Made by a program: the position numbers and the translations under genes. A model generated the notes under the pieces. It saw nothing but the letters and a program-made list of their open reading frames with translations. It was not told where the DNA came from and did no database searches. Below are positions 15,606 through 38,503 of a DNA stretch of 43,417 nt, piece by piece. Source of the stretch: Gammaproteobacteria bacterium (GTDB taxonomy: Bacteria > Pseudomonadota > Gammaproteobacteria > Pseudomonadales > Litorivicinaceae); NCBI GenBank assembly GCA_002714245.1, contig PAWX01000071.1, forward strand, positions 1 to 43,417. Reading direction: 5' to 3'. Positions within the stretch are counted from its first letter, which is position 1. Each line of letters starts with the position of its first letter.

Positions 15606-15616
15606 CTGGTTACGCT

Positions 15617-17577: not shown

Positions 17578-17589
17578 ATCGATTCCTTA

Positions 17590-21827: not shown

Positions 21828-23415
21828 TCGTCTTCACACAGACACACTGATCATCGGCGCCGGGAGCGCGGGCTGTGTGATTGCGAACCGGTTGTCAGCC
21901 AATCCCGAACACCAGGTAACCCTTGTAGAGGCTGGCGGCAAAGATAATTGGCACTGGATCCATATCCCGGTCGGCTATCTTTACACCATGGGGAATCCCA
22001 AAACAGACTGGTGCTACACAACAACGCCGCAAGAGGGCCTAAATGGCCGCAGCCTCGCATACCCACGTGGACGAGTCTTAGGTGGATGCTCGAGTATTAA
22101 CGGCATGATCTACATGCGTGGACAAAAAGACGACTACACGTCGTGGGGTGAGGGATGGTCATGGGACGACGTACTTCCCTATTACAAGAAGTCGGAGAAC
22201 TACCATCGAGGCGCCGACGACTACCATTCAGATCAGGGGGAGATGCTGGTTCAAGAGCAACGACTCAAGTGGGATGTTCTGGAGACATTTAAAAAAGTTT
22301 GTGAAGAGAACGGCTTCACTGACAGACCCGACTTCAACTGCGGAGATAACAGTGGGGTCGGTTATTTCGAGGTCACACAAAGAAAAGGGATCCGTTGGTC
22401 ATCGGCGCGCGCGTTCTTGCACCCGGTAATGCATCGATCAAACCTCACGGTAATGACCAAGACCTTGACCGTGCGACTCATCTTTGACGGAGACCGTTGC
22501 ATCGGTATGGAAGGAACCCGTCATGGCAAGCCTGTTTCAATTCGAGCAAAGCGTGTCGTTCTGGCCGCCGGCGCTGTCGGTTCACCATCACTCCTTGAGC
22601 GATCCGGGATTGGCTCTGAGGCGGTACTTAAACCACTGGGTATCCCTATCCGTAACCGACTCGAGGGTGTCGGTAAAAACCTACAAGACCATCTTCAGGT
22701 CCGGCTGCAATACCGCCTGGAGGCCGGCGAGACGCTCAACCAACACGCCAACTCATGGCTCGGTCGGATCAAAATGGGCCTGCACTACGCCTATAACCAG
22801 TCAGGGCCCTTGTCAATGGCCCCCAGCCAGCTTGGAGCTTTTTTTAAGTCGAGCGACGAGATCGATCGAGCTGACCTCGAATTCCATATCCAACCAATGA
22901 GCGCCGATAAACTTGGTACCGACCTCCATCCCTTTCCGGGAATGACCGCAAGCGTCTGTCATTTGCGGCCCGAGAGTCGGGGCACGGTCCACATCAGTGG
23001 TACGAACGCGTCGGATGCCCCGATTATTGACCCCAATTATCTATCCGAGACATACGACCGTGACGTCGTATGCAGGGCGATCGAAAAAACCAGAGACCTG
23101 ATGGACCATCCGCTACTCGCTGAGTTCTCACCATCCGAACACAAGCCGGGACGAACGCAGAAAACGGATCGCGACCTTGTCAAGGCCGCTGGTGATGTGG
23201 CGACAACAATTTTCCATCCTGTGGGGACCGCAAAGATGGGACCCGACACCGACGGTGAGGCGGTTGTATCCAGAAAACTCGGCGTCCATGGTTTACGTGA
23301 CCTTTATATCGCTGACGCATCGGTCTTTCCCACAATAACCAGTGGGAACACTCACGCTCCGGTCGTCATGATTGCCGAGCGGCTCGCGGAGTGGCTAGAT
23401 CAATCCGATGATTAG
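21820..23415 (+). CDS. GMC family flavin oxidoreductase (choline dehydrogenase-like)
   Basis: GAGSAG, 'GGCSSINGMIY.RG', 'NLQDHL', 'HPVGT.KMG', 'GNT.AP'. Confidence 0.92.
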   Translation: MTDRLHTDTLIIGAGSAGCVIANRLSANPEHQVTLVEAGGKDNWHWIHIPVGYLYTMGNPKTDWCYTTTPQEGLNGRSLAYPRGRVLGGCSSINGMIYMRGQKDDYTSWGEGWSWDDVLPYYKKSENYHRGADDYHSDQGEMLVQEQRLKWDVLETFKKVCEENGFTDRPDFNCGDNSGVGYFEVTQRKGIRWSSARAFLHPVMHRSNLTVMTKTLTVRLIFDGDRCIGMEGTRHGKPVSIRAKRVVLAAGAVGSPSLLERSGIGSEAVLKPLGIPIRNRLEGVGKNLQDHLQVRLQYRLEAGETLNQHANSWLGRIKMGLHYAYNQSGPLSMAPSQLGAFFKSSDEIDRADLEFHIQPMSADKLGTDLHPFPGMTASVCHLRPESRGTVHISGTNASDAPIIDPNYLSETYDRDVVCRAIEKTRDLMDHPLLAEFSPSEHKPGRTQKTDRDLVKAAGDVATTIFHPVGTAKMGPDTDGEAVVSRKLGVHGLRDLYIADASVFPTITSGNTHAPVVMIAERLAEWLDQSDD

Positions 23416-24439
23416 CGAAGAGCCCCAGATCATTTAAACGCTGATCCAGGCGCGGGAATACCCGCCTAGCGTTACCCTCAAAAAGCTTCTCCAGATCGCC
23501 ACGGGTCAGCCCTAGCTGGTCAATGTATTTCTTGGTATCGTCGAAATACTCCCCAGTGTTTGGATCGATTCCCTTCACCGCACCCAGCATCTCAGAACCA
23601 AACAACACATTGTCTGTGCCAATCACTGACAACAAGAGTTCTATGCCTGGCTTGTGGTAGACACAGGTATCAAAGTACACGTTTGTCATGATGTACTCTG
23701 ATGGCTCTGGTTTACCAAGCATCTGCGCGAGTCCACGGTACCTTCCCCAGTGGTAAGGAATAGCACCCCCGCCATGAGGGATAATAAAACGTAGGTCCGG
23801 GAACTCCGAAAATAAGTCACCCTGCACGAGCTGCATGAAGGCAGACGTGTCACCATTGATGTAGTGCGCGCCTGTCGTGTGGTGGCACTCATTACACGAC
23901 CCGGAGACATGAATCATCGCAGGAACGTCCAGCTCCACCATCACCTCATAAAGCGGGTACCAGTATGGGTCCGTTAATGGCTTCCCTGTCCAGTGGCCGC
24001 CCGAGGGGTCGGGGTTAAGGTTGAATCCAACGAACCCCATCCCGATACACCGGCGTAGCTCGTCGATTGCCGGCCCCAATGACTGGCCTCCCTCCTGCGG
24101 TAGCTGGCAGCCCGGTGCGAAGTTTTTGGGAAACAGCTCACAGACGCGGTGAATCAGGTCGTTACTCTCACGGGCCCAGGCGATAGATGTCTCTAGATCA
24201 GCCTGGTGCTGCCCCATCGCTGACGCCTTGGGGGAGAAAATCGTCATGTCCCCGCCACGTTCCTTGATCAACTTCAACTGATTATTTTCAATCGAATCGA
24301 TTATCTCGTCATCAGAGACTGCCGCCATCTTCGCGAGACTAGTGTCTTTACCCTCCGAAAACAGTCCAAGCTGTTCGTCCCGAAACGCTTGTAGCTTTGG
24401 AGACGATGTCGTGTAGTGGCCATGGCAATCGATAATCAT
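23366..24439 (-). CDS. ligJ: 4-oxalomesaconate (KCH) hydratase, amidohydrolase superfamily
   Basis: 'MIIDCHGHYTT', 'NPDPSGGHW', 'HTTGAHYIN.DT.AFMQ', 'PHGGGA.PYHWGR', 'FGSEM.GAV'. Confidence 0.9.
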   Translation of the reverse strand: MIIDCHGHYTTSSPKLQAFRDEQLGLFSEGKDTSLAKMAAVSDDEIIDSIENNQLKLIKERGGDMTIFSPKASAMGQHQADLETSIAWARESNDLIHRVCELFPKNFAPGCQLPQEGGQSLGPAIDELRRCIGMGFVGFNLNPDPSGGHWTGKPLTDPYWYPLYEVMVELDVPAMIHVSGSCNECHHTTGAHYINGDTSAFMQLVQGDLFSEFPDLRFIIPHGGGAIPYHWGRYRGLAQMLGKPEPSEYIMTNVYFDTCVYHKPGIELLLSVIGTDNVLFGSEMLGAVKGIDPNTGEYFDDTKKYIDQLGLTRGDLEKLFEGNARRVFPRLDQRLNDLGLFANHRIDLATPRAARQS

Positions 24440-24457: not shown

Positions 24458-25159
24458 TCAGTCTCTGGTCTCTTTGTCTTCGTCGTAGGTCACGTATTGC
24501 AGACCCATATCGAGGAGCCGTTGTCTCATATTGTTCATATCGAGACCCAGGGTCCCGTCCCGATACTTCCCCCTGACACCAGCCTCCCTGTCTTCACGCG
24601 CCTCAGATTTTTGTACCACCGAATCCAGCTCATGCCTACGCACAACGACGACCCCATCGTCGTCGCCGATAACCAGATCACTCGGGTTGACCACCTGCCC
24701 GCCACATACAACCGGGACGTTAACATCGCCAAGGGTCTCTTTAACGGTCCCCTGTGCCGAGATGCATCGACTGAAGACAGGGATATTCATTTGTCGTAGG
24801 TCGGCCAGATCACGGACACCTGAATCGATCACCAGCCCGGCGATCCCTCGAGCCTGCATCAGGGTCGCGAGAAGGTCGCCAAAGTAACCACAGTCTGACC
24901 GTGAGTTGACCGCGACCACCATCACGTCGCCCGGCTCACATTGCTCCATCGCGACGTGGATCATGACGTTATCGCCTGGGGTGGCGAACACGGTCACCGC
25001 CCGTCCGACCAGCTTTAACCCCTCCTTGATAGGCCTGATCTCGGGACTCAACAGACCCACACGGCCCTGAGCCTCGTGCACGGTGGCGACGCTGAGTTCC
25101 TTGTAACGGGTGACCGTCTCCGTTGGGATTGTGGGTATTCCGGTGACTACTTTTGGCAT
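24458..25159 (-). CDS. ligK: 4-carboxy-4-hydroxy-2-oxoadipate (CHA/HMG) aldolase
   Basis: 'VATVHEAQGR.GLL', 'PGDN.MIH', 'GYFGDLLA', 'GVRD', 'GTVKET.G', 'LGLD...MR'. Confidence 0.92.
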   Translation of the reverse strand: MPKVVTGIPTIPTETVTRYKELSVATVHEAQGRVGLLSPEIRPIKEGLKLVGRAVTVFATPGDNVMIHVAMEQCEPGDVMVVAVNSRSDCGYFGDLLATLMQARGIAGLVIDSGVRDLADLRQMNIPVFSRCISAQGTVKETLGDVNVPVVCGGQVVNPSDLVIGDDDGVVVVRRHELDSVVQKSEAREDREAGVRGKYRDGTLGLDMNNMRQRLLDMGLQYVTYDEDKETRD

Positions 25160-26124
25160 ATCGCCGCCTCCGTCTCTTTGTTTTTCAGCGACAGAATCTG
25201 ACCCAACAGGCTATCGACAACGTCGCGTTCGATTCCCCTACCGATGACCACCAAAACGTTCTCGGTGGGCCAACCAGAGTGGTTGTAGTCGAAGGTCACG
25301 TGCCGCCGGACCCCCTGAATAATCATGAATTGGTCACTACCATGCGTGCGGACCGTACCCTTCATCCTGAGAAGCCCGGGGCCAATTTGTTCGATCCATT
25401 CACCAAACAGATCCACAAACTCAGACTCGTCAACCGTCGCCTCCCAACGGATTGTTTGGGTCGTGTAGCCGTGGCCATCGTGGTGATATTCATGTCCGAT
25501 TGGGATCAGGCTCTGGCCTTGCATATAGCAATTTGCCGGACCCAAAAAGGTGTCCGTGGTGGGGAGGAGCTCATCCCTCAAAGACAGGACGTGCACATCG
25601 GAAAGCGGATTCAGGGACTGTAGTTGTTGTTTAAAATGATCTAGGTCCCGGGCTTCATCGTGTCTGTTGATAATAGATACTGATGCCATCGACAACTGCT
25701 CTGCGGCCGATTCTTGCGCCAACAGCCAGTCAAAGCTGTTCCTGCCGTCGACGACTGCCACCACCGACTGAAGCGAATAGGACCTGGAAAGGAACGAGCT
25801 TCCCTCAAAGAGTGGTATCAGGTCAGACGGATTCGAGATTCCACTGGTTTCGATCCAGACCGAGGTCTTGTCAGGGAAAAGGCTGGGAAGCTCGTGCAAG
25901 GTCCTGAGCAGGTCGTCTTTTACCGTACAACAGATGCACCCGCCATCCATCGCACGATAGGCGGTACCGGTCGAACCAATCTGCACAGAATCGAAGGACG
26001 CGTCACCAAAATCGTTCACGATCAAGACCGCATCTTTCAGTTGGCCCGACTGAATCAGTCCAAGCGCGAGCGTCGTCTTCCCGGCACCCAGGAATCCGGT
26101 GACTACACAGACTGGACGAGTCAA
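25147..26124 (-). CDS. COG0523/CobW-family metallochaperone GTPase
   Basis: GFLGAGKT Walker A, GCICC metal motif, ETSG, His-rich linker HEYHHDGH, CobW_C 'LRMKG'. Confidence 0.88.
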   Translation of the reverse strand: MTRPVCVVTGFLGAGKTTLALGLIQSGQLKDAVLIVNDFGDASFDSVQIGSTGTAYRAMDGGCICCTVKDDLLRTLHELPSLFPDKTSVWIETSGISNPSDLIPLFEGSSFLSRSYSLQSVVAVVDGRNSFDWLLAQESAAEQLSMASVSIINRHDEARDLDHFKQQLQSLNPLSDVHVLSLRDELLPTTDTFLGPANCYMQGQSLIPIGHEYHHDGHGYTTQTIRWEATVDESEFVDLFGEWIEQIGPGLLRMKGTVRTHGSDQFMIIQGVRRHVTFDYNHSGWPTENVLVVIGRGIERDVVDSLLGQILSLKNKETEAAICQK

Positions 26125-27239
26125 TGGACAGGCCCATGAGGCAACAACGAGACATGCACCACGTCCTCACTGATCTCCCCAGCCACGGCTCTTACCGCTG
26201 TATCAGCATCTTCCAATGGATAGGTGTGGGTCGTCACCAGATCCAGTGGGAACCGGTTTGAGGCAAGCTGCTCTAACGCTAGCTCACAAGACTGGTAGCC
26301 GTGGCCCCGAGCACTCTTGAAAGTAATCCACTTGACGGTGGCTTTGCCAAGCGGGAAGTTCGGAAACTCTGCCAGCTCGCCTTGTAGCAGGATGGTTCCC
26401 CCTTTCCGCTTGAGGGCCTCAACCCCTAGCATCACCGGGATCGTTCCGGCCCCGGACGTGCATTCAAGCGAGACATCGACCCCGATACCGCCGGTGATCT
26501 CCATAATCCGCTCGAGGGGATCCTCCTCACTCACGTTGATGGTATAATCCGCGCCCAGCTTCTTGGCAACCTCAAGGCGCCTCACGTCTTTGGCGGTGCC
26601 GGTCACGATAATGCACGAGGCACCCGCCTGCTTACAGGCAACGGTCTGAGCCATCCCCTGCTGGCCGGGGCCCTGAATTAATACCGACGAGTTGTAGCCC
26701 ACCCCACAATCGAACAGTGCCCACTCGATCCCGTTCGCCATCGGCGTGACGATCCCGGCGAGCTCTGGTGACACGCCCTTGGGGACCTTGTGCAGGACAG
26801 CGTTCCACGGCAGATACATATACTCAGCGAACCCACCCCAAAGATGAGGCGCAGACTCACACGAGGTGTATCCGTAGCGAATCGCATTGGGGTTATGCCG
26901 CCAGTCCGTTGAGGCACAGTGCCTGTACTCGCCCTTATGGCACCACTCGCACTGCATGCAGGTAACGTAGTGCTCGACGAACACGAGGTCACCTTCCTTT
27001 ACACCTTGACGCTCCGTGAATAATTTGCCGGCCTTTGCGATGTACCCGATGTTCTCGTGACCCATGATGACATGCTCGTCTTTCTGGGGTTTTTTGTACA
27101 TTTTCACGTCTGTGCCACAAATACCCGCCACCACGACTTTCATCAGCGCAGCATCCTCTGGTACGTCCGGCATAGGGTACTCCCGCATCTCCATCTGCGA
27201 CGCACCAACGCGAACCATCGCCTTCACCATCTCCGACAT
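26121..27239 (-). CDS. Zn-dependent medium-chain dehydrogenase
   Basis: GICGTD, GHE, CxxCxxC...C structural zinc site, GPGxxG. Confidence 0.9.
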   Translation of the reverse strand: MSEMVKAMVRVGASQMEMREYPMPDVPEDAALMKVVVAGICGTDVKMYKKPQKDEHVIMGHENIGYIAKAGKLFTERQGVKEGDLVFVEHYVTCMQCEWCHKGEYRHCASTDWRHNPNAIRYGYTSCESAPHLWGGFAEYMYLPWNAVLHKVPKGVSPELAGIVTPMANGIEWALFDCGVGYNSSVLIQGPGQQGMAQTVACKQAGASCIIVTGTAKDVRRLEVAKKLGADYTINVSEEDPLERIMEITGGIGVDVSLECTSGAGTIPVMLGVEALKRKGGTILLQGELAEFPNFPLGKATVKWITFKSARGHGYQSCELALEQLASNRFPLDLVTTHTYPLEDADTAVRAVAGEISEDVVHVSLLPHGPVH

Positions 27240-27374
27240 ACCAATCTCCTAAAATAGAACCCACAGTTTACCGACTCAATTCTCAGGAGCTATATTCAAT
27301 TCGGAACCACTGCAAAACAAACTTGATTGAGCAGAACCCTCGCATCTGCACCACCAAACTGGAACGATATATAT

Positions 27375-27659
27375 ATGAGAAGCGCGCTCAAGCAGCGATC
27401 GGAAGTTTATCGACTAGAGAGATTAATCCTCCAACGATTCGAGCTGCACCCGGGCACGATGCTGTTAATTGAAGAGCATTGGCCACGTGACCCGGGGTTC
27501 CCTGTACGGATGAGCGTGTTCTCGTTTTGGCTTGGGGACGTCCGGCACGGGTTCACGGTATTTAAACGTCTCGAAGAGGTCGACGACGGAGATTTTCCTC
27601 CTGGCTGGATGAAAAATCGACTAATCAGATTTGAGCCAATGGGATGCAGCTGCTGCTGA
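27375..27659 (+). CDS. Small conserved hypothetical protein with C-terminal CxCC
   Basis: 'DPGFP...FW...RH.F.VFK.LEEV...D.PP.W...GCSCC'; resembles a small family often auto-labelled 'nitrate reductase'. Start at ATG 27375 is inferred. Confidence 0.65.
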   Translation: MRSALKQRSEVYRLERLILQRFELHPGTMLLIEEHWPRDPGFPVRMSVFSFWLGDVRHGFTVFKRLEEVDDGDFPPGWMKNRLIRFEPMGCSCC

Positions 27660-27684
27660 GATAACAATAAAAAGGATGGTCAGG

Positions 27685-28626
27685 ATGGGTCTTAAAGCTG
27701 TCTCGCGGAGTCAGGGCGCTAACCAAGACATCAAGAGTGGGCAAATAAAACCAAAAGGGTTCGAGCTTGATTTCGAGGAGTGGCCGGTCCTCGTCAAGGC
27801 CTTCCGTGCGATGGTCCGAGAGCAAGCGTTCGATGTCTGTGAGATGGCCCTGACCACCTACATCTGTGCCCGACAACACGGCGTACCCCTGATCGGGATC
27901 CCTATATTTCTAGTCCGAGGATTTCACCACGATAAGATTAGTGTCGCCAAAGACTCAAACATCCGGAGCGTCGAGGACCTAGCCGGGACAAAAATCGGGG
28001 TGAACCGAGGATACACGGTCACGACAGGTGTGTGGGCGAGAACCATACTAGATAGGGAGGGGTTGGACCTGAACCAAGTGACCTGGGTTCGATCGAGCGA
28101 CGAGCACGTTGAAGCCTATTCACCCCCTAAAAACGTTGAAATGATTCCTGAAGGAAAGTCGCTCGAGGAGATGCTGGTCTCTGGTGAGCTGGGCGCCGTG
28201 GCAGGCATGGCGCCGGACGACTTTAGTTCAGATAAGGTACGAACCTTGATTACAGACCCAGACCAGTCAGCGCTACTCGCGCTCGATCGGAGCGGTTTTT
28301 ATCCAATCAACCACCTGATCGTGATGACGGAATCTATCGTAGAGACGTTCCCGACACTACCCGAGGCGCTATTCGAATGTTTTTCAGAGCAAAAGAGACA
28401 GTACCTGGAAAGCCTGACTGCAAGACCCACGGCGGACAATGACGAAATCGATGCCCGCAACCGGAGACTCCAGTCGTTGGGGTTCGATCCACTACCCTAT
28501 GGGATCGAACCAAACGAGCAGGTACTCAACGAGTTGATTGAGTCTGGGCTGCGCCAGAAAATTTTATCCCCGACCACCGGATGGGGGGACTATTTCTGCG
28601 GCTCGGTGCTTAATCTAAATGGCTAA
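27685..28626 (+). CDS. 4,5-dihydroxyphthalate decarboxylase-like protein (type 2 periplasmic-binding fold, no signal peptide)
   Basis: 'FDVCEMALTTY', 'IPIF..RGFHH', 'GYTVTTGVW.R', 'YPINH', 'DPLPYGIEPN'; ATG 27685 with AAGGA SD. Confidence 0.75.
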   Translation: MGLKAVSRSQGANQDIKSGQIKPKGFELDFEEWPVLVKAFRAMVREQAFDVCEMALTTYICARQHGVPLIGIPIFLVRGFHHDKISVAKDSNIRSVEDLAGTKIGVNRGYTVTTGVWARTILDREGLDLNQVTWVRSSDEHVEAYSPPKNVEMIPEGKSLEEMLVSGELGAVAGMAPDDFSSDKVRTLITDPDQSALLALDRSGFYPINHLIVMTESIVETFPTLPEALFECFSEQKRQYLESLTARPTADNDEIDARNRRLQSLGFDPLPYGIEPNEQVLNELIESGLRQKILSPTTGWGDYFCGSVLNLNG

Positions 28627-29486
28627 GCGCGGTAGAAATCGTCGAAAAATGTAAACACAGAATCGCTGTTCTGGGCATCAATCGGGAGATCCAGGAACCG
28701 CGAGTCTGACAGACATTCCTTCACAAAGTGGGCCGCTGATCGTGCGTGGCTCTCATCAGCCCCTGGCAAAATACACACCGGTCGCGCGATCTGCATCAGT
28801 TCCTCGGGTCTCGGCCCCGGTGCACTGTCACAGTCGAACATGGCCCTGTAGCTTGCCTGTACCAGCCTCCCATAAGCCGCCTCGTCACATGTTCTCAGCG
28901 ACTCAGAGAGCCCCTCATCGACGCGGAGAGAACCGCCCCACGGGCCAAGCGTAGAGTCCTTCGCGAACCCAACCTCGGAGCCAAGCGCTTTCTCGATCAA
29001 GGCCCCGGTCCCGTGTTCTGAGACCCAGGCCAAGTGAGTCGAAAATCGGCCAAAGTTACGGATCCGATACCTCGCCCCACCCACCGGCCAGACAAGGTTA
29101 AGGCTCGTCGTAAGATTCGGATACAGACGTGCGAACTCCGATGCCGGAGCGCACCCGAGGCATCCGCCGATCACATGCGCAGATCGCTGTCCGAGTTGTT
29201 CGAGTACAGCATTTCCGTGTCTTGCCATCCCCGCGAAATCCAGTATCTCTAACCGACCGCCTGATTTGCCGCACTCTCGTCGATCAAACAAGATACAAGT
29301 GAAACGGTCAGCCAAGTAGCTCATGATGTCGATTTTCTTGTAGATGCCAAGATCGGTCCATTTCTCAAGCGTCGCATCAAAACCGCCCGGAGAAAACATC
29401 AAAAGCGGCTCGCCTTTACCGATAACAGATACCCGGGTCGGAATACCATCAGCGTCTAACATTTGAGTCGTAATTTTTGTCATCAC
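28623..29486 (-). CDS. Alpha/beta-fold hydrolase with Cys nucleophile
   Basis: 'PGGF' oxyanion loop, 'FDRRECG.S', elbow GGCLG, 'PG.D.SH'. Confidence 0.85.
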   Translation of the reverse strand: MMTKITTQMLDADGIPTRVSVIGKGEPLLMFSPGGFDATLEKWTDLGIYKKIDIMSYLADRFTCILFDRRECGKSGGRLEILDFAGMARHGNAVLEQLGQRSAHVIGGCLGCAPASEFARLYPNLTTSLNLVWPVGGARYRIRNFGRFSTHLAWVSEHGTGALIEKALGSEVGFAKDSTLGPWGGSLRVDEGLSESLRTCDEAAYGRLVQASYRAMFDCDSAPGPRPEELMQIARPVCILPGADESHARSAAHFVKECLSDSRFLDLPIDAQNSDSVFTFFDDFYRA

Positions 29487-30295
29487 TTTCTACCAAGACC
29501 GCCCTTGATCTGTTTTCCGGATCGGATATCTCCGAGCAACTCGGTCACCGCATCCCGACTCGTCTGGGCAGTGTAGGCGTATGCGCTTGGCGGGTTGTCT
29601 AGGAACTTGGTCCCGTAACCGACCGCTGCGTGAAACATCCGTATCCGACCATCGAGCCACGGACCACCGCCCATGCCCCCAATAACAGGAATACCTACAG
29701 CATCTGTTATAGCCTCACCAATCACGGGCCCGGCGTTTGTCAGATCGATCATGGCCGCACCAGCCTGCTCGCAGACCTGAGCCTCCTGAATCAACTGTTC
29801 CATCATCTCATCAGGAACAAGACTCTCCGGTTGCTGTAGGTCACCAATACTAATCCCATACTTTGAACCCGACTGGGGACTGAGACCCATCTGTGCAAAT
29901 ACAGGAACACCCGCCCGAGTCACAGCAGTAACAGCCTCAGGGAAATCGGGGGCAGCATCAATCTTTACCAGATCAGCCCCTCCCTCCTGGACGAGTCTGA
30001 TCGCGGCACGGACCGCCTCCGTGGGATCGATTTGCACGGGACCGTAGGGAATGTCTGCACACACAAGTGCATCAGGTGCACCACGCCGGACAGCCTTTAC
30101 GGCGACCAGGAAGTCGTCCAGCGTGATCTCCAGATTGTTCGAGTGGCCCCAAAGATTGACCCCAACAGAGTCACCAACGATAAGGAAGTCAGCCCCACAC
30201 TCGTGTGCGATGTGCGCAGTCGGGGCGTCCCAAACAACCAACGCGGCAGACTTCTCGCCGATTCCTTTCATGGCCTGTATCTGGTTGATGTTCAT
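29483..30295 (-). CDS. Divergent PanB-like (ketopantoate hydroxymethyltransferase-fold) enzyme
   Basis: 'VGDSVG', 'ADIPYG', 'VKID', 'MGLSPQ'; residues equivalent to PanB H136 and E181 are changed; ATG 30295 after AGGAG. Confidence 0.8.
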   Translation of the reverse strand: MNINQIQAMKGIGEKSAALVVWDAPTAHIAHECGADFLIVGDSVGVNLWGHSNNLEITLDDFLVAVKAVRRGAPDALVCADIPYGPVQIDPTEAVRAAIRLVQEGGADLVKIDAAPDFPEAVTAVTRAGVPVFAQMGLSPQSGSKYGISIGDLQQPESLVPDEMMEQLIQEAQVCEQAGAAMIDLTNAGPVIGEAITDAVGIPVIGGMGGGPWLDGRIRMFHAAVGYGTKFLDNPPSAYAYTAQTSRDAVTELLGDIRSGKQIKGGLGRK

Positions 30296-30316
30296 ACTCA
30301 CTCCTGAACCTTACAA

Positions 30317-31321
30317 TTAGCCGTAACGATCATAAAATACCTGATCCGACGGGACCCGGTAGTGGCGGACAATCTCCTGCTCTACCGCGCCGGCCATAAG
30401 TGGCGGCCCGGCGAAGTAAAGATCGACCTCATTGAGGCGCTCGTCGAGTTTTTGTTTGGCCAGTTCGTGAACGAATCCCTCAAAGACACGACCATCGTCG
30501 GTACCGGATCTATCAGTCAACGCGACCTCATAATTGATCCAGTCACCATAACTTGGCATAACCGACAAGAACTGCTCACCCGCAATATCTTCCACGGCGC
30601 GGCCACCATAATAAAAGAAAACCTGTTCTGTCGTGCGCGCGCTTGATGCGGCCTCGATGGCTCGCGCAACAGAGACCATGGGGGATAACCCGGAACCTCC
30701 AGCGATTAGCACGATATCTCTACCACGAAACCCTCGAAAATAGCCGCGACCGTAGGGTCCGATGATGTCACACTCGAGTCCCACCTCAGCGTCGTCGAAC
30801 AGAGCCGTGGTCGCGGCACCACCGGGCACTCTCTTGATTTGGAAATCCCAGACACCATCGCCTCCCCCGATGTTACACATCGAGTAAGCTCGGGACCCAG
30901 GGACACCCGGGACGTCAATCAGGGCAAACTGACCGGGCTCAAACGCCTGACTCGAGTGAGTCTCAAAACGAAACTCGGAGATGTCATGGGTAACCTCCTC
31001 TATCGCCACCAGCCGCGAACTAAAACGAGACGGGTTGTGCACAGGCTCGTACTGGTCAAACAGGCGTACCTTGATCTTTAGATCACTCTTCGGTACGCAC
31101 TGACAGGCGAGATGCCGATTCCTCTGCAGGTCTCGCTCGGTGAGGATTTCTGGCTCACCGTTAGGATACTCGATGTCCCCCGATAGCAACTCAAAACGGC
31201 AGTTTCCGCAACTCCCAGACGCGCACTCATACGGAAACCCAAGCCCCTGCTCAAGGGCCGATCGCAGCAAAAAATCGCCACCACAGCCAAAAGAAATCCC
31301 ATCTTTAATTTGTACCTTCAA
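30317..31321 (-). CDS. 2Fe-2S ferredoxin/FAD/NAD(P)H oxidoreductase (oxygenase reductase component, TmoF/XylA-like)
   Basis: CASGSCGNC...C plant-type 2Fe-2S, RAYS flavin motif, GGSGLSP, AGPP, C-terminal 'YDRYG'. Confidence 0.9.
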   Translation of the reverse strand: MKVQIKDGISFGCGGDFLLRSALEQGLGFPYECASGSCGNCRFELLSGDIEYPNGEPEILTERDLQRNRHLACQCVPKSDLKIKVRLFDQYEPVHNPSRFSSRLVAIEEVTHDISEFRFETHSSQAFEPGQFALIDVPGVPGSRAYSMCNIGGGDGVWDFQIKRVPGGAATTALFDDAEVGLECDIIGPYGRGYFRGFRGRDIVLIAGGSGLSPMVSVARAIEAASSARTTEQVFFYYGGRAVEDIAGEQFLSVMPSYGDWINYEVALTDRSGTDDGRVFEGFVHELAKQKLDERLNEVDLYFAGPPLMAGAVEQEIVRHYRVPSDQVFYDRYG

Positions 31322-31339: not shown

Positions 31340-32947
31340 TTAAGACATACCATGACCCTGAAATATCAATGACTTAACAGTCACCGGCACGGTCCGTGAC
31401 GGCAGCCGGATTCGGCCTAGGTCAACAAACTCGAATTCTTTGAAGCGGAGACCGTCGAGCACCAGCAGCGGTCTCCCGATTTCATGTTCAGTCGTCAGAA
31501 TCCGCCCCACACTTTGGGCGAGATCCCGGTCGAACAACAAATAAAGCGCTGAGTCGCGGTGCTCTGTGTCCGACTCTATGTAACCAACAATGGAATCACA
31601 AAAACGCTTCAGTAGCTCATAGTCAAAATCGCCTAACCACTCAAACGCCAGAGCAAATTCTTCGTAGTCAGTTAAATCAAACTCGGTAACTGACCGTATT
31701 AACCGACACTTAAGGTCATCAGAAGTAAGATTTCCTGCGTCAACCGTCAGCCGTATCACTGGCATATTTTTCCGTGGCAACAATAGCCCGGGATCCGACA
31801 AATAACCGGTATTTCCGCTGACCTGAATATTGAACTCAGATGCTCCCAGTGCCGTCGCCCGTATCCCTCCTCGCGCAGCCTCGAATCGAATATTACTCTT
31901 CCATTCATTGAGCGCGTTCAGAAGCTGGTTACCGAGTGACTGGCCAATATCGTTGTGTCCATCAGCATCAGCATCAGCAATGTACTCGGACACGCCACCA
32001 GAGAAAATGACGGTACCGACATCGGGCGGGATCTCCAGCGGATTGGTCAGCCACCGGGCATCGGAACGCTGCTTGCCTGTGACAATGTCGAAAATGATAC
32101 TCGACAAGTGTTCGCCTAGCGCGGTGATCATCGTATCCGAAACCATATCGCCCAACCCAATCTCATGGCCGAGGTCAGACAGTACCTCGGCGGCACGTGG
32201 CTCTATCCGACTGATCTGGCCCTGTGCGTCCCAGACAAATAATCGGCCACCGACATGGAACGCCGCGGTCTGGATCAAGCTACCGTCTCGAATCAGCGCG
32301 AGCTTGGTGGTTCCCCCACCGATATCCACGTTGAGCACGCACGATGACTCTTTGCCCGATAATTCCACCGCACCTGAACCATGTGCCGCAAGATTGGACT
32401 CCATATGATGACCCGCGCTGGCGCTCAGAAAGTCTCCACCCTTGTGAGCGATCACGTGCGCTATCCCCTCCGCATTTTGGCGCCTCAATGCCTCCCCAGT
32501 CAGTAGCACGACCCCGATATCGACGTCGTGTGGCGTCACGTCAGCCTCTCGATAGGCCTGATCGATCAGCGAGCCCAGCGCCCGAGCATCGATTTCAGTG
32601 GCATCCGCGTAGGGAGTAAAGAAAATTGGTGACTGATACAACAACCGTCTGTCGACAACTACGTAGCGGGAGCTCAGTGCCTCTCCCTGCCGCTCAAGAT
32701 GAACCTGAGAAAAGACTACCTGTGTACTGCTTGAGCCGATATCGACCCCGACAGTGGACAGGAAGATATTGTCCTGCTGCCACAGCGGATTATCTTCAAG
32801 CGGACCGTCATCAAAATCGTCATCATGATCATGATCGTAGTGATGCCCCGGTACATGAGTGTGCTCATTAAAAATACCGTATTCGTGATCTGAAAGTGCG
32901 TGCCCAGCGTCGTCGGCGTCTGCACTCTTATTATTTGGCTTCGCCAA
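31340..32947 (-). CDS. eutA: EutA-like ASKHA-fold ATPase with His/Asp-rich N-terminus
   Basis: 'VGVDIGSSSTQ', 'LLTGEA', 'NVDIGGGTT', 'FSGGVSE', 'IRAT.LGA', 'VPVTVKSLIF'. Likely TTG start at 32947 (frame open to 33001). Confidence 0.82.
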   Translation of the reverse strand: MAKPNNKSADADDAGHALSDHEYGIFNEHTHVPGHHYDHDHDDDFDDGPLEDNPLWQQDNIFLSTVGVDIGSSSTQVVFSQVHLERQGEALSSRYVVVDRRLLYQSPIFFTPYADATEIDARALGSLIDQAYREADVTPHDVDIGVVLLTGEALRRQNAEGIAHVIAHKGGDFLSASAGHHMESNLAAHGSGAVELSGKESSCVLNVDIGGGTTKLALIRDGSLIQTAAFHVGGRLFVWDAQGQISRIEPRAAEVLSDLGHEIGLGDMVSDTMITALGEHLSSIIFDIVTGKQRSDARWLTNPLEIPPDVGTVIFSGGVSEYIADADADGHNDIGQSLGNQLLNALNEWKSNIRFEAARGGIRATALGASEFNIQVSGNTGYLSDPGLLLPRKNMPVIRLTVDAGNLTSDDLKCRLIRSVTEFDLTDYEEFALAFEWLGDFDYELLKRFCDSIVGYIESDTEHRDSALYLLFDRDLAQSVGRILTTEHEIGRPLLVLDGLRFKEFEFVDLGRIRLPSRTVPVTVKSLIFQGHGMS

Positions 32948-33107
32948 AGATGTTCGCCCCCATAGCAAGAATGTTTCGTTCCTATCGTCCTCTGGACACA
33001 CTTTTTCTGAGTATCATTGCTACCATCGAATCCAAGCCTGTTGAAGACATATTTTTATCTGGCGGGTGAATTTGTTCACTTCGCCATGGAGGTTTTTGAG
33101 GAATATC

Positions 33108-34226
33108 ATGAGTAAAAATGCCATCGTTTCAGACGATCTAGCAAAAAAATTCGCGAAGGAAAAGGATACCCCATACCTAAAATGGGTCCGCGATCAGGGG
33201 CTCGATATCATTGACGCTCTATACGTCAAGAATCTGAACCATGTCGAGCTCAAACCCTGGCCCCGCCGCGGTGGCTCGGGTGTATACATAAACCATGATG
33301 CGTCTCGCACGACCAATGACTGTTATGTGTGTGAGATCCCCGCCGGAAAAAAACTGGAACCCCAGAGCCAGTTATTCGAAGAAACTGTGATGATCCTGTC
33401 GGGACACGGGAAAACGACAGTCAAAAACTTTGCGGGACAGGAGGTCGAGTTCGAGTGGGGTCCCGGGGCTCTGTTCGCCATCCCGCTGAATACACTACAT
33501 CAACACTTCAACCTATCAGGATCTCAGCCGGCTCGGTATGTCGCGGTAACCAATGCGCCACCAATATTAAATACCTACGGTGACCCAGAGTTCGTCTTCA
33601 ACACCCGCCACGACTTCCCAGAGCGCTTCAGCGGTGACCCTGAGTTTTTCTCAGGCAAGGGCGAACAGAAAGGCCTGCTGTTGGAGACTAACTTTGTTCC
33701 GGACGGCGTCAATTTACCGCTGATTGAGGCAAAAGAGCGCGGCGCCGGGGGCGGCCATATCCGTTTCAATTTCGCGAAGAGTTCATTGAATAGCCACATC
33801 TCGCAGTTCCCCTTAGGTACCTACAAGAAGGCACACGCTCACGGCCCGGGCGCTCATGTGATTATTCTCAGTGGGTCCGGTTACTCTCTGATGTGGCCCG
33901 AGGGCGCCGAGCCTGAGCGCTTCGATTGGGAAGTTGGCTCGATGATCGTGCCACCTAATATGTGGTACCACCAACACTTCAACACGGGCACCACACCCGC
34001 GCGTTATCTGGCATTCAAATATGAGGGAGTCGCGATCCGAAACGCACAGGGGGTTCCCAAGGCGTGGATCAGTAAACGCATCGGCGGTCATCAGATCGAC
34101 TACGCTGATGAGACCCAAGAGGTGCGTGATCTATTTGAAAAAGCACTCGCTATGAACGGTCTATCCACTCAGATGACCGAGGCCTATGAGAGAGAACTAG
34201 AGGACCTTCCGCCAAAACCTGCATAA
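33108..34226 (+). CDS. Bicupin-domain protein (gentisate dioxygenase-like fold), function unknown
   Basis: Two cupin repeats: 'QLFEE..ILSG.G.T...HQHFN' and 'HAHGPGAH.IILSG.GYS...HQHFN'; ATG 33108 after GAGGA. Confidence 0.85.
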   Translation: MSKNAIVSDDLAKKFAKEKDTPYLKWVRDQGLDIIDALYVKNLNHVELKPWPRRGGSGVYINHDASRTTNDCYVCEIPAGKKLEPQSQLFEETVMILSGHGKTTVKNFAGQEVEFEWGPGALFAIPLNTLHQHFNLSGSQPARYVAVTNAPPILNTYGDPEFVFNTRHDFPERFSGDPEFFSGKGEQKGLLLETNFVPDGVNLPLIEAKERGAGGGHIRFNFAKSSLNSHISQFPLGTYKKAHAHGPGAHVIILSGSGYSLMWPEGAEPERFDWEVGSMIVPPNMWYHQHFNTGTTPARYLAFKYEGVAIRNAQGVPKAWISKRIGGHQIDYADETQEVRDLFEKALAMNGLSTQMTEAYERELEDLPPKPA

Positions 34227-34228: not shown

Positions 34229-34254
34229 AAAAAGGGCCGCAGATGCGGCCCTTT
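34229..34254. terminator. Bidirectional intrinsic terminator
   Basis: AAAGGGCCGC-AGAT-GCGGCCCTTT perfect hairpin with A/T tails, between the convergent cupin and small membrane protein genes. Confidence 0.85.
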
Positions 34255-34712: not shown

Positions 34713-36434
34713 CTAAACCTCATTCCCGATCCAGAGAAAACGATAGGGGGCCAGACAGAGAGGGCCGCTTCGATCAGTGACGCTGGCTCCTTCAACTAGA
34801 TCGATCCAAGCCTGATCGATAGTTAGATTCAAATTACCAACGTCTAGCATTCTCGTCTCATTAGTGACATTGAATACAGCAAAAATATTTTGTCCACGAT
34901 CCAGGCTTTGCCTCCAGAACCCAAACAAACCGGGGCCAAGATGAAGCGTCAACATTGTTGCGTTCGGATGAAAGGCCTTCTGCTTCTTCCTCACCCGGAT
35001 AAGCGCGAGGAGCCTCGTTAGCACACGACTGTGCCGAGAATCTCCATTAGCCAGATGCGATTCCAGTTGTTCTTGGTCCCAAACGTGTCTATTGATCGAG
35101 CGCAGGTTGCCGGTATTTTCGACCCGTGAAAGATCATTCTCTGTCGCCACAAGGCTGTGTACATAGATCGCCGGGATACCCTCCAGCGCCAGTAATATGG
35201 CGTGCGCACAGATGAAACGATGAAACTGATACTTATCCTTACCCTGCTCAACCGTCCCAGCCAGCGCGTCCCAGAGCGAAATATTGATCTCGTAGGGCTG
35301 CGCATCACTCGCTTGCGTGGCCCGGTAGCTCAATCGACCACCAAATCCTACCATGGTGTCGGTCAGTCTCTTAAGTTCGGTAGCCGACAGGAGACCTTCT
35401 ACAGGCCTGAGACCTATCCCATCGTGAGACGCCAAAAAATTAAAATATGCGGTCCCCATCCGGGCCGGTGGCATCGTCATCATCCACCGCTTGAGCTGAG
35501 AATAGTCACCGGTAATCAAGGTATTCAGCAAAAGCGGTGGCAACGAAAAATTATAGATCAGATGAGCCTCGTCCTGGTCCCCGAAATAACTCAAATTCTC
35601 AATATTTGGAATATTTGTCTCCGTGATTACTACTGATTTTTTTGATTTATTTTCAACAAGTAGTCGGATTAATTTAATAACAGTATGAGTTTTTGGAAGA
35701 TTGATACATGAAGTACCCAGCTCTTTCCAGACAAAACCAACTGCGTCCAGCCTGAACCAAGAAATTCCCTTCTCCAAATATCGGTGAATAATTTTCAGGA
35801 ACTCCAATAAAACCATTGGATTTTTAAAGTTGAGGTCAACCTGATCGTGGCTAAACGTGCACCAAACCAGAATCTCTCCAAGATCCGTACGGGTCGGCCT
35901 AAGAAGTTCTGATGTACGCGGCCTGACAACCTGATCAATCGCCGCATCAGGTACCACTGTAATAAAGAAATCTTTTCCGGGATCCCTCCCCTTCTTAAAA
36001 TTTTCAAACCACAGACTACGTGTCGAGCAATGGTTCAAGACAAGGTCTCCCATAATCTTGAAGTGCTCCCCGACGGCCTCGAGTTGACCCCAATTACCAT
36101 GGCTCGGATTCACGCTTGAGTAGTCAATCACGCTGAAACCGTCGTCGGAACTGTACGGAAAGAACGGTAAAATATGTACAACCGAAAAGATTTCTTTCAG
36201 GTGACGATCGACAAACTGCTTGAGCGTCTCTAGCGGGGTTCTGGACGCCGAGGTGATGCTGTCGGCATAGGTAATCAATACGATATCGTCACTGTTCCAG
36301 AGCGCCGCATTAGAATCGGATAGCAACATACTCCCGTCGATGTCCATCGCCTCGAGGCATTGATCGGTCAATGCTAAGATATCGTGGTCAGGGTACAGTT
36401 CCGCGAGATGCGCGGTTACATTTTGAACCAGCAA
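34713..36434 (-). CDS. Glucosylglycerate phosphorylase (GH13_18 sucrose phosphorylase family)
   Basis: 'SSDDGF', 'WCTFS.DQ.DL', nucleophile RLDAV, acid/base ITETN, 'ASHDGIG', 'PYEIN'; ETN and YEIN are glucosylglycerate-type signatures. Confidence 0.85.
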   Translation of the reverse strand: MLVQNVTAHLAELYPDHDILALTDQCLEAMDIDGSMLLSDSNAALWNSDDIVLITYADSITSASRTPLETLKQFVDRHLKEIFSVVHILPFFPYSSDDGFSVIDYSSVNPSHGNWGQLEAVGEHFKIMGDLVLNHCSTRSLWFENFKKGRDPGKDFFITVVPDAAIDQVVRPRTSELLRPTRTDLGEILVWCTFSHDQVDLNFKNPMVLLEFLKIIHRYLEKGISWFRLDAVGFVWKELGTSCINLPKTHTVIKLIRLLVENKSKKSVVITETNIPNIENLSYFGDQDEAHLIYNFSLPPLLLNTLITGDYSQLKRWMMTMPPARMGTAYFNFLASHDGIGLRPVEGLLSATELKRLTDTMVGFGGRLSYRATQASDAQPYEINISLWDALAGTVEQGKDKYQFHRFICAHAILLALEGIPAIYVHSLVATENDLSRVENTGNLRSINRHVWDQEQLESHLANGDSRHSRVLTRLLALIRVRKKQKAFHPNATMLTLHLGPGLFGFWRQSLDRGQNIFAVFNVTNETRMLDVGNLNLTIDQAWIDLVEGASVTDRSGPLCLAPYRFLWIGNEV

Positions 36435-36446
36435 TGAATCCCTCTC

Positions 36447-37667
36447 CTAGCTGAACTCTTTCATATCTGCGTCGACACTAACCAACAGCTCGTCCATAAG
36501 ACCCGGTAAAGCACTGCTGACTCGATTCCAACTCGGAATAAATGGCCGCTCGGTCGGGTTTTCAAGAAAATGCGTCCCGGCTTTCATCAGGTTCAAAGCA
36601 AATAATTCCACGGCCTTCTCTTCCCTGTGCAAGTCGAGGTCGAGCCCATTTATGGCAGAGTCGCTTTTGTAGTGATCGACAAAATCGAGCGCGACACGGT
36701 AATAAGTCGCCTTTATCGTTCTGAATGTTTCCTGATTGAAAACTATTCCGTTGGTCGCGAGTTTCCTGAAGATTGCCTTGCTGATGTCGATCGACATCCT
36801 GGACAGTCCCGTACTCTCGTCGTCTTGCGATAAATCTTGATGCTTATGATCGTAAGTGTCGGCAATATCAACCTGACATAGTCGGTTATTGGAATAGTTC
36901 CGGGTCATTTCGCTCAAGATACCGATCTCTAGGCCCCAATCTGATGGGATCCGTAGGTCTTTGATTACGTCTCGGCTAAAAGACATTTCCCCGGCGAGTG
37001 GGTACCTGAAGCTGTCGAGATAATCCAAGTATTCCAATGACCCAAATATCCGCTTGAGAGTCTGTAACAGTGGGGTCACTAGCAGCCGTGTTACCCTACC
37101 GTTCATTTTACCGTTAGCGACACGGGCATAGTAGCCCTTGCAAAACTCGTAGTTAAATTGTGGGTGGGCGACTGGATACAAAAGACGGGCAAGTAGCGAG
37201 CGATCATAGGTAACAATGTCGCAATCGTGAATAGCAAGCGCATCGGCCTGATTCGAGCCTAGGGCATACCCCATGCAAAACCACACATTACGTCCCTTCC
37301 CCATCTGATCCGGTGAAAGCTTTGCGTCCCTCAATTTCTGGTCTACCGCACGCAACCTTGGCCCGTCATGCCAAAGTACTTTTACGTTCTGAGGGAGTTG
37401 GTTAAAAACGAGCAGCGCTTTCTTGTATTCTTCTAGGGTCGCGCAATCGAGCCCAATGATTAATTGATCAAGATACGGAACGTGGCTTAGCTCTTTGACG
37501 ATCTTAGGCATCGATTCCGTTTCAAGCTCGGAATATAGACATGGGAGTATTAACCCTAGCCGCTTTTCCTTTGAAAACCGCAAGAGCTCGGACTCCAGTG
37601 CATCCGTGCCACGCTGAGCTAGGTTGTGAAGCGTGGTCACAATTCCGTTTTGATAGAAATCACCCAT
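36447..37667 (-). CDS. gpgS: Glucosyl-3-phosphoglycerate synthase
   Basis: 'MGDFYQNG..TTLH', 'GKGRNVW', 'HDCDI', 'GRVTRL', 'YPLAGE', 'DWGLEIG', 'YDHKHQ'. Confidence 0.88.
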   Translation of the reverse strand: MGDFYQNGIVTTLHNLAQRGTDALESELLRFSKEKRLGLILPCLYSELETESMPKIVKELSHVPYLDQLIIGLDCATLEEYKKALLVFNQLPQNVKVLWHDGPRLRAVDQKLRDAKLSPDQMGKGRNVWFCMGYALGSNQADALAIHDCDIVTYDRSLLARLLYPVAHPQFNYEFCKGYYARVANGKMNGRVTRLLVTPLLQTLKRIFGSLEYLDYLDSFRYPLAGEMSFSRDVIKDLRIPSDWGLEIGILSEMTRNYSNNRLCQVDIADTYDHKHQDLSQDDESTGLSRMSIDISKAIFRKLATNGIVFNQETFRTIKATYYRVALDFVDHYKSDSAINGLDLDLHREEKAVELFALNLMKAGTHFLENPTERPFIPSWNRVSSALPGLMDELLVSVDADMKEFS

Positions 37668-37678
37668 CCGCTAGATCC

Positions 37679-38503
37679 TCAAATTAGTTCTCTTAAAACA
37701 ATTGTTCTGACGGCCTCGTACCAACCACTTGGTCCGGTGCGTTTGGTGCGATAGACCGGTGATTTCGTTTCTATGTCGGGAAAACCATGCCTCTCCGACC
37801 TGATTAATACGGGATAGTCGGCGTCCGCTAACATTTGCGCGTCATTCTCACTATCTCCCAAGGCCATTATCTTGTAGTCTTTTTCGTGGACTAGCCTCAT
37901 CCGGTTGACTAACCAACGTTGGGCCAGATTTTTATCTGTATCTCCCATAAGGTGAACAAAACGTCCCCCCATCACCAGGCGTAACCCCTCGGACAACGCC
38001 ATGTCTGATAATTTCTTTAAAGAAGCTTCGCTGTCACGCCAAAGAAGCGGCTCTGAGAACTCACGCGTCTGCGCCATTAGAACATCGTATCCGCTTAGAC
38101 CGGTAACCGACGCACATTCTGCCTCTGACATCTGAGTCAACGCAGTGTACTTGAAAGCCTCGCCCGCCGAGTTCACGAAGTCTTTGATTCGTTGGTGCGA
38201 TACGCCTAACACACAACGGAGGTAGCTGTGGGCCGGTTCAAGCCCCTTAGTGCCAGCGATCTCATGATCGAGTGGCACGTAAACCGCGGATCCATTCTCA
38301 ACAACAAACGGTTGATGATTACCCATCGAACGCCTGATCTTGAGCATCTCCGGAAAGGTTTTGCTTGAATTAAAGACCACCGGTATACCCTGAGTGTTCA
38401 AGGTCTCAAACAGTGAGTCAGCCGGAGAGGCCCTATAAGTCTCATCGTCCAAGAGCGATCCATCGAGATCGGTGAAAATAATCAGATCCTTCATACACCT
38501 CAT
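37679..38503 (-). CDS. gpgP: Glucosyl/mannosyl-3-phosphoglycerate phosphatase (HAD-IIB)
   Basis: DLDGSLLD, SSKT, ENG, 'REFSEP', 'GGRF.H', GDSEND; first gene of the operon. Confidence 0.85.
   Translation of the reverse strand: MRCMKDLIIFTDLDGSLLDDETYRASPADSLFETLNTQGIPVVFNSSKTFPEMLKIRRSMGNHQPFVVENGSAVYVPLDHEIAGTKGLEPAHSYLRCVLGVSHQRIKDFVNSAGEAFKYTALTQMSEAECASVTGLSGYDVLMAQTREFSEPLLWRDSEASLKKLSDMALSEGLRLVMGGRFVHLMGDTDKNLAQRWLVNRMRLVHEKDYKIMALGDSENDAQMLADADYPVLIRSERHGFPDIETKSPVYRTKRTGPSGWYEAVRTIVLRELI

Follow-up and report, generated by a model that had tools for sequence, protein, structure and literature searches.

Bicupin ring-cleaving dioxygenases with a site of three histidines (3-His) have been described (PMC4019311). 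In gentisate and salicylate 1,2-dioxygenases (GDO and SDO), the iron lies in the N-terminal barrel, where it is bound by His119, His121, and His160 and surrounded by Gln108, His162, and Asp175 in its outer shell (PMC4019311). In this study, we analyzed a bicupin gene on a stretch of 43,417 nt (hereafter the window; contig PAWX01000071.1 of assembly GCA_002714245.1), which comes from a member of Litorivicinaceae whose genome amounts to 1.87 Mb and is 78% complete. The conserved His site of this bicupin lies in the opposite, C-terminal barrel, and its gene adjoins one for a divergent relative of EutA, the reactivase of ethanolamine ammonia-lyase. This specific pairing with a EutA-like ATPase is the strongest signal of the locus, and it was missed by the original prediction, an earlier note on the same gene. 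We tentatively propose a two-protein system, in which a ring-opening metal oxygenase of the C barrel would be served by a EutA-like helper ATPase on the N barrel, a reading that in our estimate falls a little short of an even chance.

The bicupin is encoded on the forward strand at positions 33108–34226 by an open reading frame of 372 aa without internal stop, in agreement with its homologs and with a confident two-barrel AlphaFold2 model (predicted local distance difference test [pLDDT] 92.4; predicted template modeling score [pTM] 0.90). Bicupins top both structure searches, and the architecture is indeed that of a bicupin; Pfam recognizes a single domain, Cupin_2, at residues 75–147. Based on the predicted strands, the N-terminal barrel spans approximately residues 49–148 (33252–33551, +) and the C-terminal barrel approximately residues 216–305 (33753–34022, +). 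Both match the cupin motif spacing G-x5-[HQ]-x-[HQ]-x3/4-[EH]-x6-G. In the N barrel, motif 1 reads Q86-S-Q88-L-F-E91-E92 (33363–33383, +), so that Gln replaces both motif-1 His, and motif 2 reads H131-Q-H133-F-N (33498–33512, +). In the C barrel, motif 1 reads Y239-K-K-A-H243-A-H245-G-P-G-A-H250 (33822–33857, with H243–H250 at 33834–33857, +) and motif 2 W-Y-H288-Q-H290-F-N (33963–33983, with H288 to Asn at 33969–33983, +), and an additional His, H230, is located on the strand before motif 1 (33795–33797, +). The original prediction had quoted a full His set for the C-terminal cupin, and Gln at the usual His positions together with a Glu pair for the N-terminal one; the translation and the alignments confirm both strings.

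We then compared these positions in 121 homologs of at least 72% identity and in a wider set of 69 relatives with identities down to 32%. Of the 121 homologs, 79 carry PQRQLFEE as their N motif and the others carry one close to it; the C motif YKK[AG]H[ARC]HGPGAHV, the HQHFN motif, and H230 (121/121) are essentially invariant. Across the 69 relatives, H230 (66/69), Y239, H243, H245, H288, Q289, and H290 are each retained in at least 91%, H250 is retained in only 39, and the N-barrel positions drift, with Q/E at 86, H/Q at 88, and H/Y at 131. Because the N-barrel positions vary and the C-barrel site is kept, the conserved, presumably catalytic center lies in the C-terminal barrel. Three of its His (H243, H245, and H288) occupy canonical ligand positions, and the motif-1 Glu position is taken by H250, hence no carboxylate ligand is present. 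The predicted metal site is presumably a 3-His site with further His around it. Collectively, the alignments indicate that the asymmetry of the two barrels is a fixed trait of the subfamily and no chance pattern.

Searches of the PDB with the single sequence gave weak matches only, among them the gentisate 1,2-dioxygenase 3bu7 (E 0.002). With the family profile, 3bu7 is the best match (E 1.3e-12); the alignment covers the C barrel only and brings the HxH and W-x-H-x-H motifs together, the latter with W-H-E-H of 3bu7. The next sequence matches are cupin-type phosphoglucose isomerases. In the structure comparison, the salicylate 1,2-dioxygenase 2phd ranks first (Z 21.0; root-mean-square deviation 4.8; 273 aligned residues), followed by the gentisate dioxygenases 3bu7 (Z 20.3) and 2d40 (Z 19.8) and by vicilins, oxalate decarboxylase, and others (Z ~19); the identity to the gentisate and salicylate dioxygenases is 12–17%. 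Foldseek returned all kinds of bicupins at similar scores (template modeling score ~0.48) and did not discriminate among them. No NCBIfam model came near its cut-off: the best was MabB (NF049978; 25.5 bits vs. a cut-off of 650), and no gentisate model was reported. As for the oxygenase assignment of the original prediction, the bicupin shows no close identity to a characterized non-oxygenase cupin, and its nearest solved structures are 3-His ring-cleaving dioxygenases. It is nearer to the gentisate/salicylate dioxygenase family than to any other studied enzyme; it is not a gentisate dioxygenase, because its metal site is in the opposite barrel. By analogy with this family, a function as a 3-His metal oxygenase is most probable for the bicupin.

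The adjoining gene encodes the EutA-like ASKHA ATPase and is divergent from the bicupin gene (31340–33001, −; this is the longest open reading frame, and the true start is possibly further in). The protein matches the Pfam family PF06277 over positions 3–475 of 475 (E 3e-100) and stays below every NCBIfam EutA cut-off, with 286 bits against 598 for the best equivalog. The nucleotide motifs DxGSS, DIGGGTTK, and SGGV.E are invariant in the EutA-like partners, and the ATPase model finds generic ASKHA matches only, of which exopolyphosphatase/GppA-type proteins are the best (Z 13–16). Moreover, the partners of the close subfamily carry an N-terminal tract of the form H-x-L-x-D-H … H-x-H … D-H-D-H-D, followed by LEDNPLWQQDN. 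In the window, this tract lies at 32800–32905 (−) and is disordered in the model; its conserved His and Asp residues suggest metal handling.

To describe the pairing, we collected 84 loci with a close bicupin homolog and their 10-kb flanks, many of which are cut short by contig ends. A EutA-like gene occurs within 10 kb of the bicupin in 60 of the 84 loci and is its steadiest neighbor. The genome of the window holds exactly three EutA-family genes, each adjoining one of its three bicupin genes. A search of this genome, which is 78% complete, gave no EutB, and no B12 enzyme was recognized among the neighbors of the EutA-like gene. The two families also diversify together: EutA-like proteins 40–49% identical to that of the window adjoin bicupins at 70–75% identity, and those at 32–38% adjoin bicupins at 30–33%. 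Two Nocardioides loci contain pairs of both types next to each other.

The second and third pairs of the genome are located on contigs C3 (33573–36226) and C20 (21269–23987), with bicupins 39% and 32% identical to the window copy. Both of these bicupins combine a degenerate N barrel with an HxH C barrel; the C20 bicupin lacks H230, and its EutA-like partner lacks the His-rich tract. Among our control genomes, the Pfam EutA family is also present in Bacillus subtilis, Caulobacter vibrioides, Thermus thermophilus, and Deinococcus radiodurans, and EutB is present in Escherichia coli only, so that model organisms carry orphan EutA-like genes as well. In many alpha- and betaproteobacterial loci (L002–L004, L013, L014, and L017; for example, L002 at 5337–12396), a His-rich EutA-like gene and one or two bicupin genes form an operon with an ATP-binding cassette (ABC) importer. 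This importer has a fused permease and is of the PhnS2/T2/U2 type (Fe(III)/2-aminoethylphosphonate [2-AEP]-like), which hints either at the nature of the substrate or at a supply of metal.

The complex prediction for the bicupin and the EutA-like protein scored 0.65 (0.54, 0.65, and 0.66 in single runs), and the three controls all scored 0.00. Of 80 solved complexes, 58 attain this mark of 0.65, as do 2 of 110 mismatched pairs; these counts hold only roughly here, as alignments of our own were supplied for the two proteins. At least 53% of the contacts are common to the runs, and the pLDDT of the partner is at least 84. On the bicupin, the predicted interface is formed by residues 79–82, 100–104, 114–118, and 134–139 of the N barrel; on the ATPase, it is formed by residues 396–398, 458–465, 492–505, and 534 in the C-terminal part. 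A sequence search found no EutA structure in the PDB, and the ATPase model resembles generic ASKHA proteins only; thus, the passing prediction is unlikely to be the recall of a solved complex. The model supports, rather than demonstrates, binding, and the interface stays a prediction. According to this model, the ATPase likely docks on the degenerate, Gln-type N barrel, which would offer one way to understand the asymmetry, with the barrel that lacks His ligands as a possible docking module.

The genomic context bears on the reaction. The original prediction had considered the bicupin as a replacement of LigAB. In its own organism this is not the case, because contig C3 carries a complete canonical protocatechuate 4,5-cleavage operon (10500–17600; locus L086, 4572–11590) with ligA, ligB, a ligC-like dehydrogenase, a LigJ paralog, LigK, a 4-oxalomesaconate (OMA) tautomerase, and a LigI-like hydrolase. 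The window contains the second genome copies of two of these enzymes, namely a LigK-type 4-carboxy-4-hydroxy-2-oxoadipate aldolase (24458–25159, −; 53% identical to the C3 copy; NF006731, 308 bits vs. a cut-off of 179) and a LigJ-type 4-oxalomesaconate hydratase (23366–24439, −; 55% identical to the C3 copy; 6dxq, E 1.5e-137). Beside this second pair, the window has no LigAB-type dioxygenase, LigI, or LigU. A LigB-type dioxygenase is found in none of the 84 bicupin loci and LigJ/LigK in 9–10 of them, and locus L083 has the order bicupin, Zn-dependent alcohol dehydrogenase, LigK, and LigJ on one strand. For these reasons, the bicupin is the best ring-opening candidate of a parallel branch. The more general idea of a ring-cleavage enzyme fits the gene context, the 3-His relatives, and the His site of the C barrel. 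The transporters differ among the loci (TctABC, PhnS2/T2/U2-like ABC importers, and a TonB receptor) and indicate no single compound.

An unusual cupin oxygenase formed with the orphan reductase of the cluster, the other suggestion of the original prediction, is unlikely. This 2Fe-2S/FAD/NAD reductase (30317–31321, −) was assigned by domain matches and synteny. Contig C4 encodes a LigXa-like Rieske oxygenase, which shares 71% identity with its counterparts in bicupin loci, together with a small divergent Rieske ferredoxin; beside these genes lie ArsP-type permease halves, monocupins, and an NMT1-fold gene, as they do beside the bicupin elsewhere. A LigXa-like Rieske gene is present in 30 of the 84 bicupin loci, and in six syntenic marine alphaproteobacterial clusters it starts ~100 bp after the bicupin gene. 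The reductase occurs in 14–16 of ~80 bicupin loci, which leaves ~80% without it; 10 of the 16 reductase-bearing loci also hold a LigXa-like Rieske gene, and most of the others are cut contigs. Given the Rieske oxygenase and ferredoxin on C4 and the Rieske genes that adjoin the bicupin in related clusters, the reductase has a conventional partner and most likely serves the LigXa-like Rieske oxygenase on C4.

We build a mechanism on what was observed, namely the bicupin fold, the conserved His site, the pairing of the two genes, and the passing complex prediction. In this mechanism, the bicupin would be the catalytic subunit, with a mononuclear metal center in the C barrel that is liganded by H243, H245, and H288 and surrounded by H230, H250, and H290. 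By analogy with the 3-His cupin dioxygenases, the C barrel would most likely open a hydroxylated aromatic carboxylate with O2. The substrate would probably be made by the LigXa-like Rieske oxygenase, and the product would pass on to the second LigJ/LigK pair. The N barrel would have no second catalytic iron site and would serve as a docking platform for the divergent EutA-like ATPase. The ATPase may load, exchange, or repair the metal center using ATP, similar to the action of EutA on the cofactor of ethanolamine ammonia-lyase. The chemistry with O2, the substrate, the identity of the metal, and the task of the ATPase are thus what we infer. With low confidence, the whole pathway may be ordered as follows: a Rieske O-demethylase or hydroxylase, together with its ferredoxin and reductase, would act first, and an NMT1-fold decarboxylase related to 4,5-dihydroxyphthalate decarboxylase second; the bicupin and the ATPase would then open the ring, after which the alpha/beta hydrolase and the Zn-dehydrogenase, and finally LigJ and then LigK, would act.

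A metal theme runs through the locus, with the DHDHD tract conserved in the partner ATPases and a gene for a CobW-family GTPase, a metallochaperone family, in the cluster (25147–26124, −; family match). It is conceivable, although we would place it clearly below an even chance, that a EutA-type ATPase was recruited as a dedicated, ATP-driven maturation or repair factor of a mononuclear-metal cupin oxygenase, docked on a barrel that lost its metal ligands in becoming the docking module and transferring or exchanging the metal, possibly not iron, through its DHDHD tail. In our literature search, no helper of the ASKHA ATPase kind was described for cupin enzymes.

Several points weigh against the proposed oxygenase and helper ATPase. 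The sequence similarity to gentisate dioxygenase is limited to one barrel, and since seed-storage vicilins and oxalate decarboxylase score nearly as high in the structure comparison, dioxygenase chemistry cannot be read from the fold by itself. Both close and distant members of the bicupin family bear generic names only, and we found no assayed member. The predicted contact residues are not more conserved than average in either protein and thus lend the interface no independent support. Furthermore, the Gln, Glu, and His of the N barrel are themselves conserved in the subfamily, so this barrel may bind something rather than be a passive platform. A second type of EutA-like partner has no His-rich tract, and some loci, such as L053, L066, and L083, have no EutA-like gene in reach. 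Finally, we reason that C1–C2 cleavage of the gentisate type would not obviously yield 4-oxalomesaconate, and the link from the bicupin to LigJ/LigK therefore needs intermediate steps.

Other readings of the same data have to be weighed. The bicupin may be a non-oxygenase cupin that isomerizes, tautomerizes, decarboxylates, or hydrates a ring or open-chain intermediate, for example at a tautomerase step before LigJ, with no ring opening by O2. This would suit the phosphoglucose isomerases that come next in the sequence searches, the presence of oxalate decarboxylase, ureidoglycine aminohydrolase, and KduI at Z 15–19, and a window cluster without the LigU/GalD-type tautomerase that the C3 operon has. 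However, both the profile search and the structure comparison match ring-cleaving dioxygenases best, and the all-His site resembles those of the 3-His oxygenases (PMC4019311). The bicupin also frequently has a Rieske oxygenase as its neighbor in loci that encode no further ring-cleaving enzyme, and LigJ/LigK are missing from most bicupin loci; on balance, we regard a non-oxygenase as unlikely. Alternatively, the ASKHA protein could itself be the catalyst of an ATP-dependent heteromeric enzyme, phosphorylating or carboxylating the substrate, for instance, with the bicupin as its second subunit. The full-length match to PF06277, a family whose sole studied member is a reactivase, makes this distinctly unlikely, as do the conserved His/Asp tract, which points to metal handling, and the bicupin loci that have no ATPase. 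In favor of such an enzyme are the tight pairing and the predicted complex, the kinases among ASKHA folds and the exopolyphosphatase/GppA-type proteins as best structural matches, and the invariant DxGSS and DIGGGTTK motifs.

For an NAD(P)H-dependent cupin mono-oxygenase fed by the neighboring reductase, we see only a very low probability. The reductase does lie in the same cluster, and the window has no Rieske gene; the Rieske oxygenase and ferredoxin on C4, the Rieske genes in most reductase-bearing loci, and the small share of bicupin loci with a reductase speak against it. It is scarcely probable, too, that the bicupin is a non-enzymatic metal-binding protein for storage, buffering, or sensing, and that the ATPase and CobW complete a metal-trafficking set. 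Such a protein would be at odds with catabolic clusters containing Rieske oxygenases, decarboxylases, and LigJ/LigK and with outer-shell residues (Y239, Q289, and H290) that are conserved as in enzymes, and the presence of three diverged copies in a genome of 1.9 Mb is easier to reconcile with substrate diversification. It would account for the cyanobacterial Mn-binding bicupin MncA among the Foldseek matches, for the His-rich partners and the neighbors of metal-chaperone type, and for the Fe(III)/2-AEP-type ABC importers inside many operons. An ordinary gentisate or salicylate 1,2-dioxygenase ortholog can practically be set aside: the best structural and profile matches belong to these enzymes, but no NCBIfam gentisate model is reached and even MabB falls far short of its cut-off, the His triad is C-terminal instead of N-terminal at an identity of 12–17%, and there is no context of maleylpyruvate isomerase or hydrolase.

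The bicupin family is large. The bicupin matches more than 5,800 sequence clusters built at 90% identity, of which the best 120 are 71–96% identical to it, and thousands of homologs from several phyla share 70–77% identity with it. Among the carriers are Alpha-, Beta-, and Gammaproteobacteria, Actinomycetota, and Acidobacteriota, each with ~70–75% identity; cultured carriers include Marinobacter algicola DG893, Saccharospirillum alexandrii, Brevirhabdus pacifica, Phyllobacterium, and Nocardioides. In contrast to these numbers, none of 196 good-quality sampled Pseudomonadota genomes has a match, and the family is thus sporadic despite its numbers. The high identity across phyla and the patchy occurrence suggest horizontal spread. 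A few members are named “ethanolamine ammonia lyase-activating protein,” a label presumably taken over from the neighboring gene. The Protein Atlas gave cupin clusters only for the bicupin, and in our literature search, no paper dealt with this bicupin family or linked any cupin with a EutA-like protein.

A set of 11 genes of the window is kept from Litoricolaceae to relatives in SAR116 and Rhodobacteraceae. In addition to the genes described above, the cluster encodes a PanB-like protein (29483–30301, −), an alpha/beta hydrolase (28623–29486, −; domain match and synteny), an NMT1-fold protein related to 4,5-dihydroxyphthalate decarboxylase (27631–28626, +; 9jp7, E 3e-29), and a member of the Zn-dependent alcohol dehydrogenase family (26121–27239, −; domain match and synteny), which is 68–72% identical in alphaproteobacterial clusters. 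The PanB-like protein is below both NCBIfam PanB cut-offs and is syntenic in marine clusters; it lies inside a catabolic cluster and keeps 47–50% identity in the syntenic alphaproteobacterial clusters. The Zn-dehydrogenase and NMT1-fold genes flank an open reading frame of ~110 aa (27327–27659, +) that matches no Pfam family; one of similar size occupies the same place in the Litoricolaceae loci and in L018 and L072, a likeness of size and position only. Elsewhere in the genome, the regions C4 at 2031–7265 and C15 at 5916–7081 contain the Rieske genes with the ArsP-type permease halves and also two tandem monocupin pairs. In each pair, one gene keeps HxH…HQHFN and the other is degenerate, which repeats the asymmetry of the bicupin in split form and in reverse order.

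The bicupin gene itself begins at the ATG at 33108, since near-identical homologs have 371–372 aa and start at the same Met; these lengths and the common Met rule out the in-frame GTG at 33066. The strong Shine–Dalgarno sequence claimed by the original prediction corresponds to a Shine–Dalgarno-like GAGGAA at 33098–33103 (+), 6 nt upstream of the ATG. As for its claim of an own terminator, directly downstream of the stop, a stable GC-rich hairpin (34231–34254, +; −19.1 kcal/mol, z −5.5) is followed by a short U tract (UUUCC), and a consensus scan did not call it as a terminator. The hairpin is the probable terminator of the gene. Further downstream, an unrelated compatible-solute set at 34713–38503 (−) encodes a sucrose-phosphorylase-family enzyme, a glucosyl-3-phosphoglycerate synthase, and an MPGP-family phosphatase, which points to glucosylglycerate metabolism.

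The pairing points to an undescribed system of helper plus enzyme. The bicupin family is very large and unusually conserved, with ~70% identity among the phyla Actinomycetota, Acidobacteriota, and Pseudomonadota. None of its members has been studied, and its genes occur in clusters for the catabolism of aromatic acids in bacteria from marine, freshwater, and soil habitats. Should the bicupin open the ring, it would account for an as yet unassigned ring-opening reaction in pathways that end in LigJ/LigK and have no LigAB-type dioxygenase in the cluster, which would be relevant to the turnover of lignin- and plankton-derived carbon and to annotation. If the ATPase services the metal center, it would be the first ATPase helper of a cupin enzyme and would represent a new class of metalloenzyme helper. 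Such a role would also provide a function for widespread orphan EutA genes and explain why thousands of genes are misnamed “EutA” in genomes that have no ethanolamine lyase.

Compared with GDO and SDO, the bicupin shares the fold, including the N-terminal extension (Z 20–21), and the principle of one catalytic barrel. It also shares the metal motif of HxH and W-x-H-x-H and, in the alignments, the second His two residues past the ligand, which is His162 in GDO and H290 in the bicupin. In contrast, the catalytic site is N-terminal in GDO and SDO and C-terminal in the bicupin, whose N barrel has Gln at both positions; moreover, the bicupin has H250 at the motif Glu position and the conserved H230. 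H230 may sit at the place of Gln108 of GDO, and a counterpart of the Asp was not located. We know of no ATPase partner for GDO.

Similar to EutA, the partner matches PF06277 from end to end and keeps the ASKHA nucleotide motifs, and our notion that a helper binds its client enzyme and is driven by ATP is an analogy borrowed from EutA. The partner differs in staying below the equivalog cut-off, in its additional His/Asp-rich N-terminal tract, in having a cupin as the proposed client, and in a context where neither EutB nor a B12 enzyme was found. Helpers of metal centers are known from other enzymes: XylT-type ferredoxins reduce inactivated catechol 2,3-dioxygenase, and the GTPases UreG, HypB, and CobW act with His-rich partners. 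The proposed system resembles these in its dedicated accessory protein, which would supply an enzyme with the correct metal in the correct state or maintain it there, in its His-rich tracts, and in the CobW-family gene of the cluster, whereas the proposed helper is an ASKHA ATPase and neither a ferredoxin nor a G3E GTPase.

At the level of the pathway, Sphingobium SYK-6 uses a LigXa/LigZ/LigY/LigW route for the lignin biphenyl 5,5′-dehydrodivanillate (DDVA) and the LigAB 4,5-cleavage pathway. The cluster has a similar order of functions to the LigX/LigZ/LigY/LigW and LigAB routes and to the phthalate route; in common with SYK-6, a Rieske O-demethylase served by a ferredoxin and a reductase, ring cleavage, a hydrolase, a decarboxylase, LigJ, and LigK would follow one another. 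In contrast to SYK-6, the bicupin would take the place of LigZ or LigAB, which are extradiol enzymes of the LigB type, the alpha/beta hydrolase that of LigY, and the NMT1-fold protein that of LigW.

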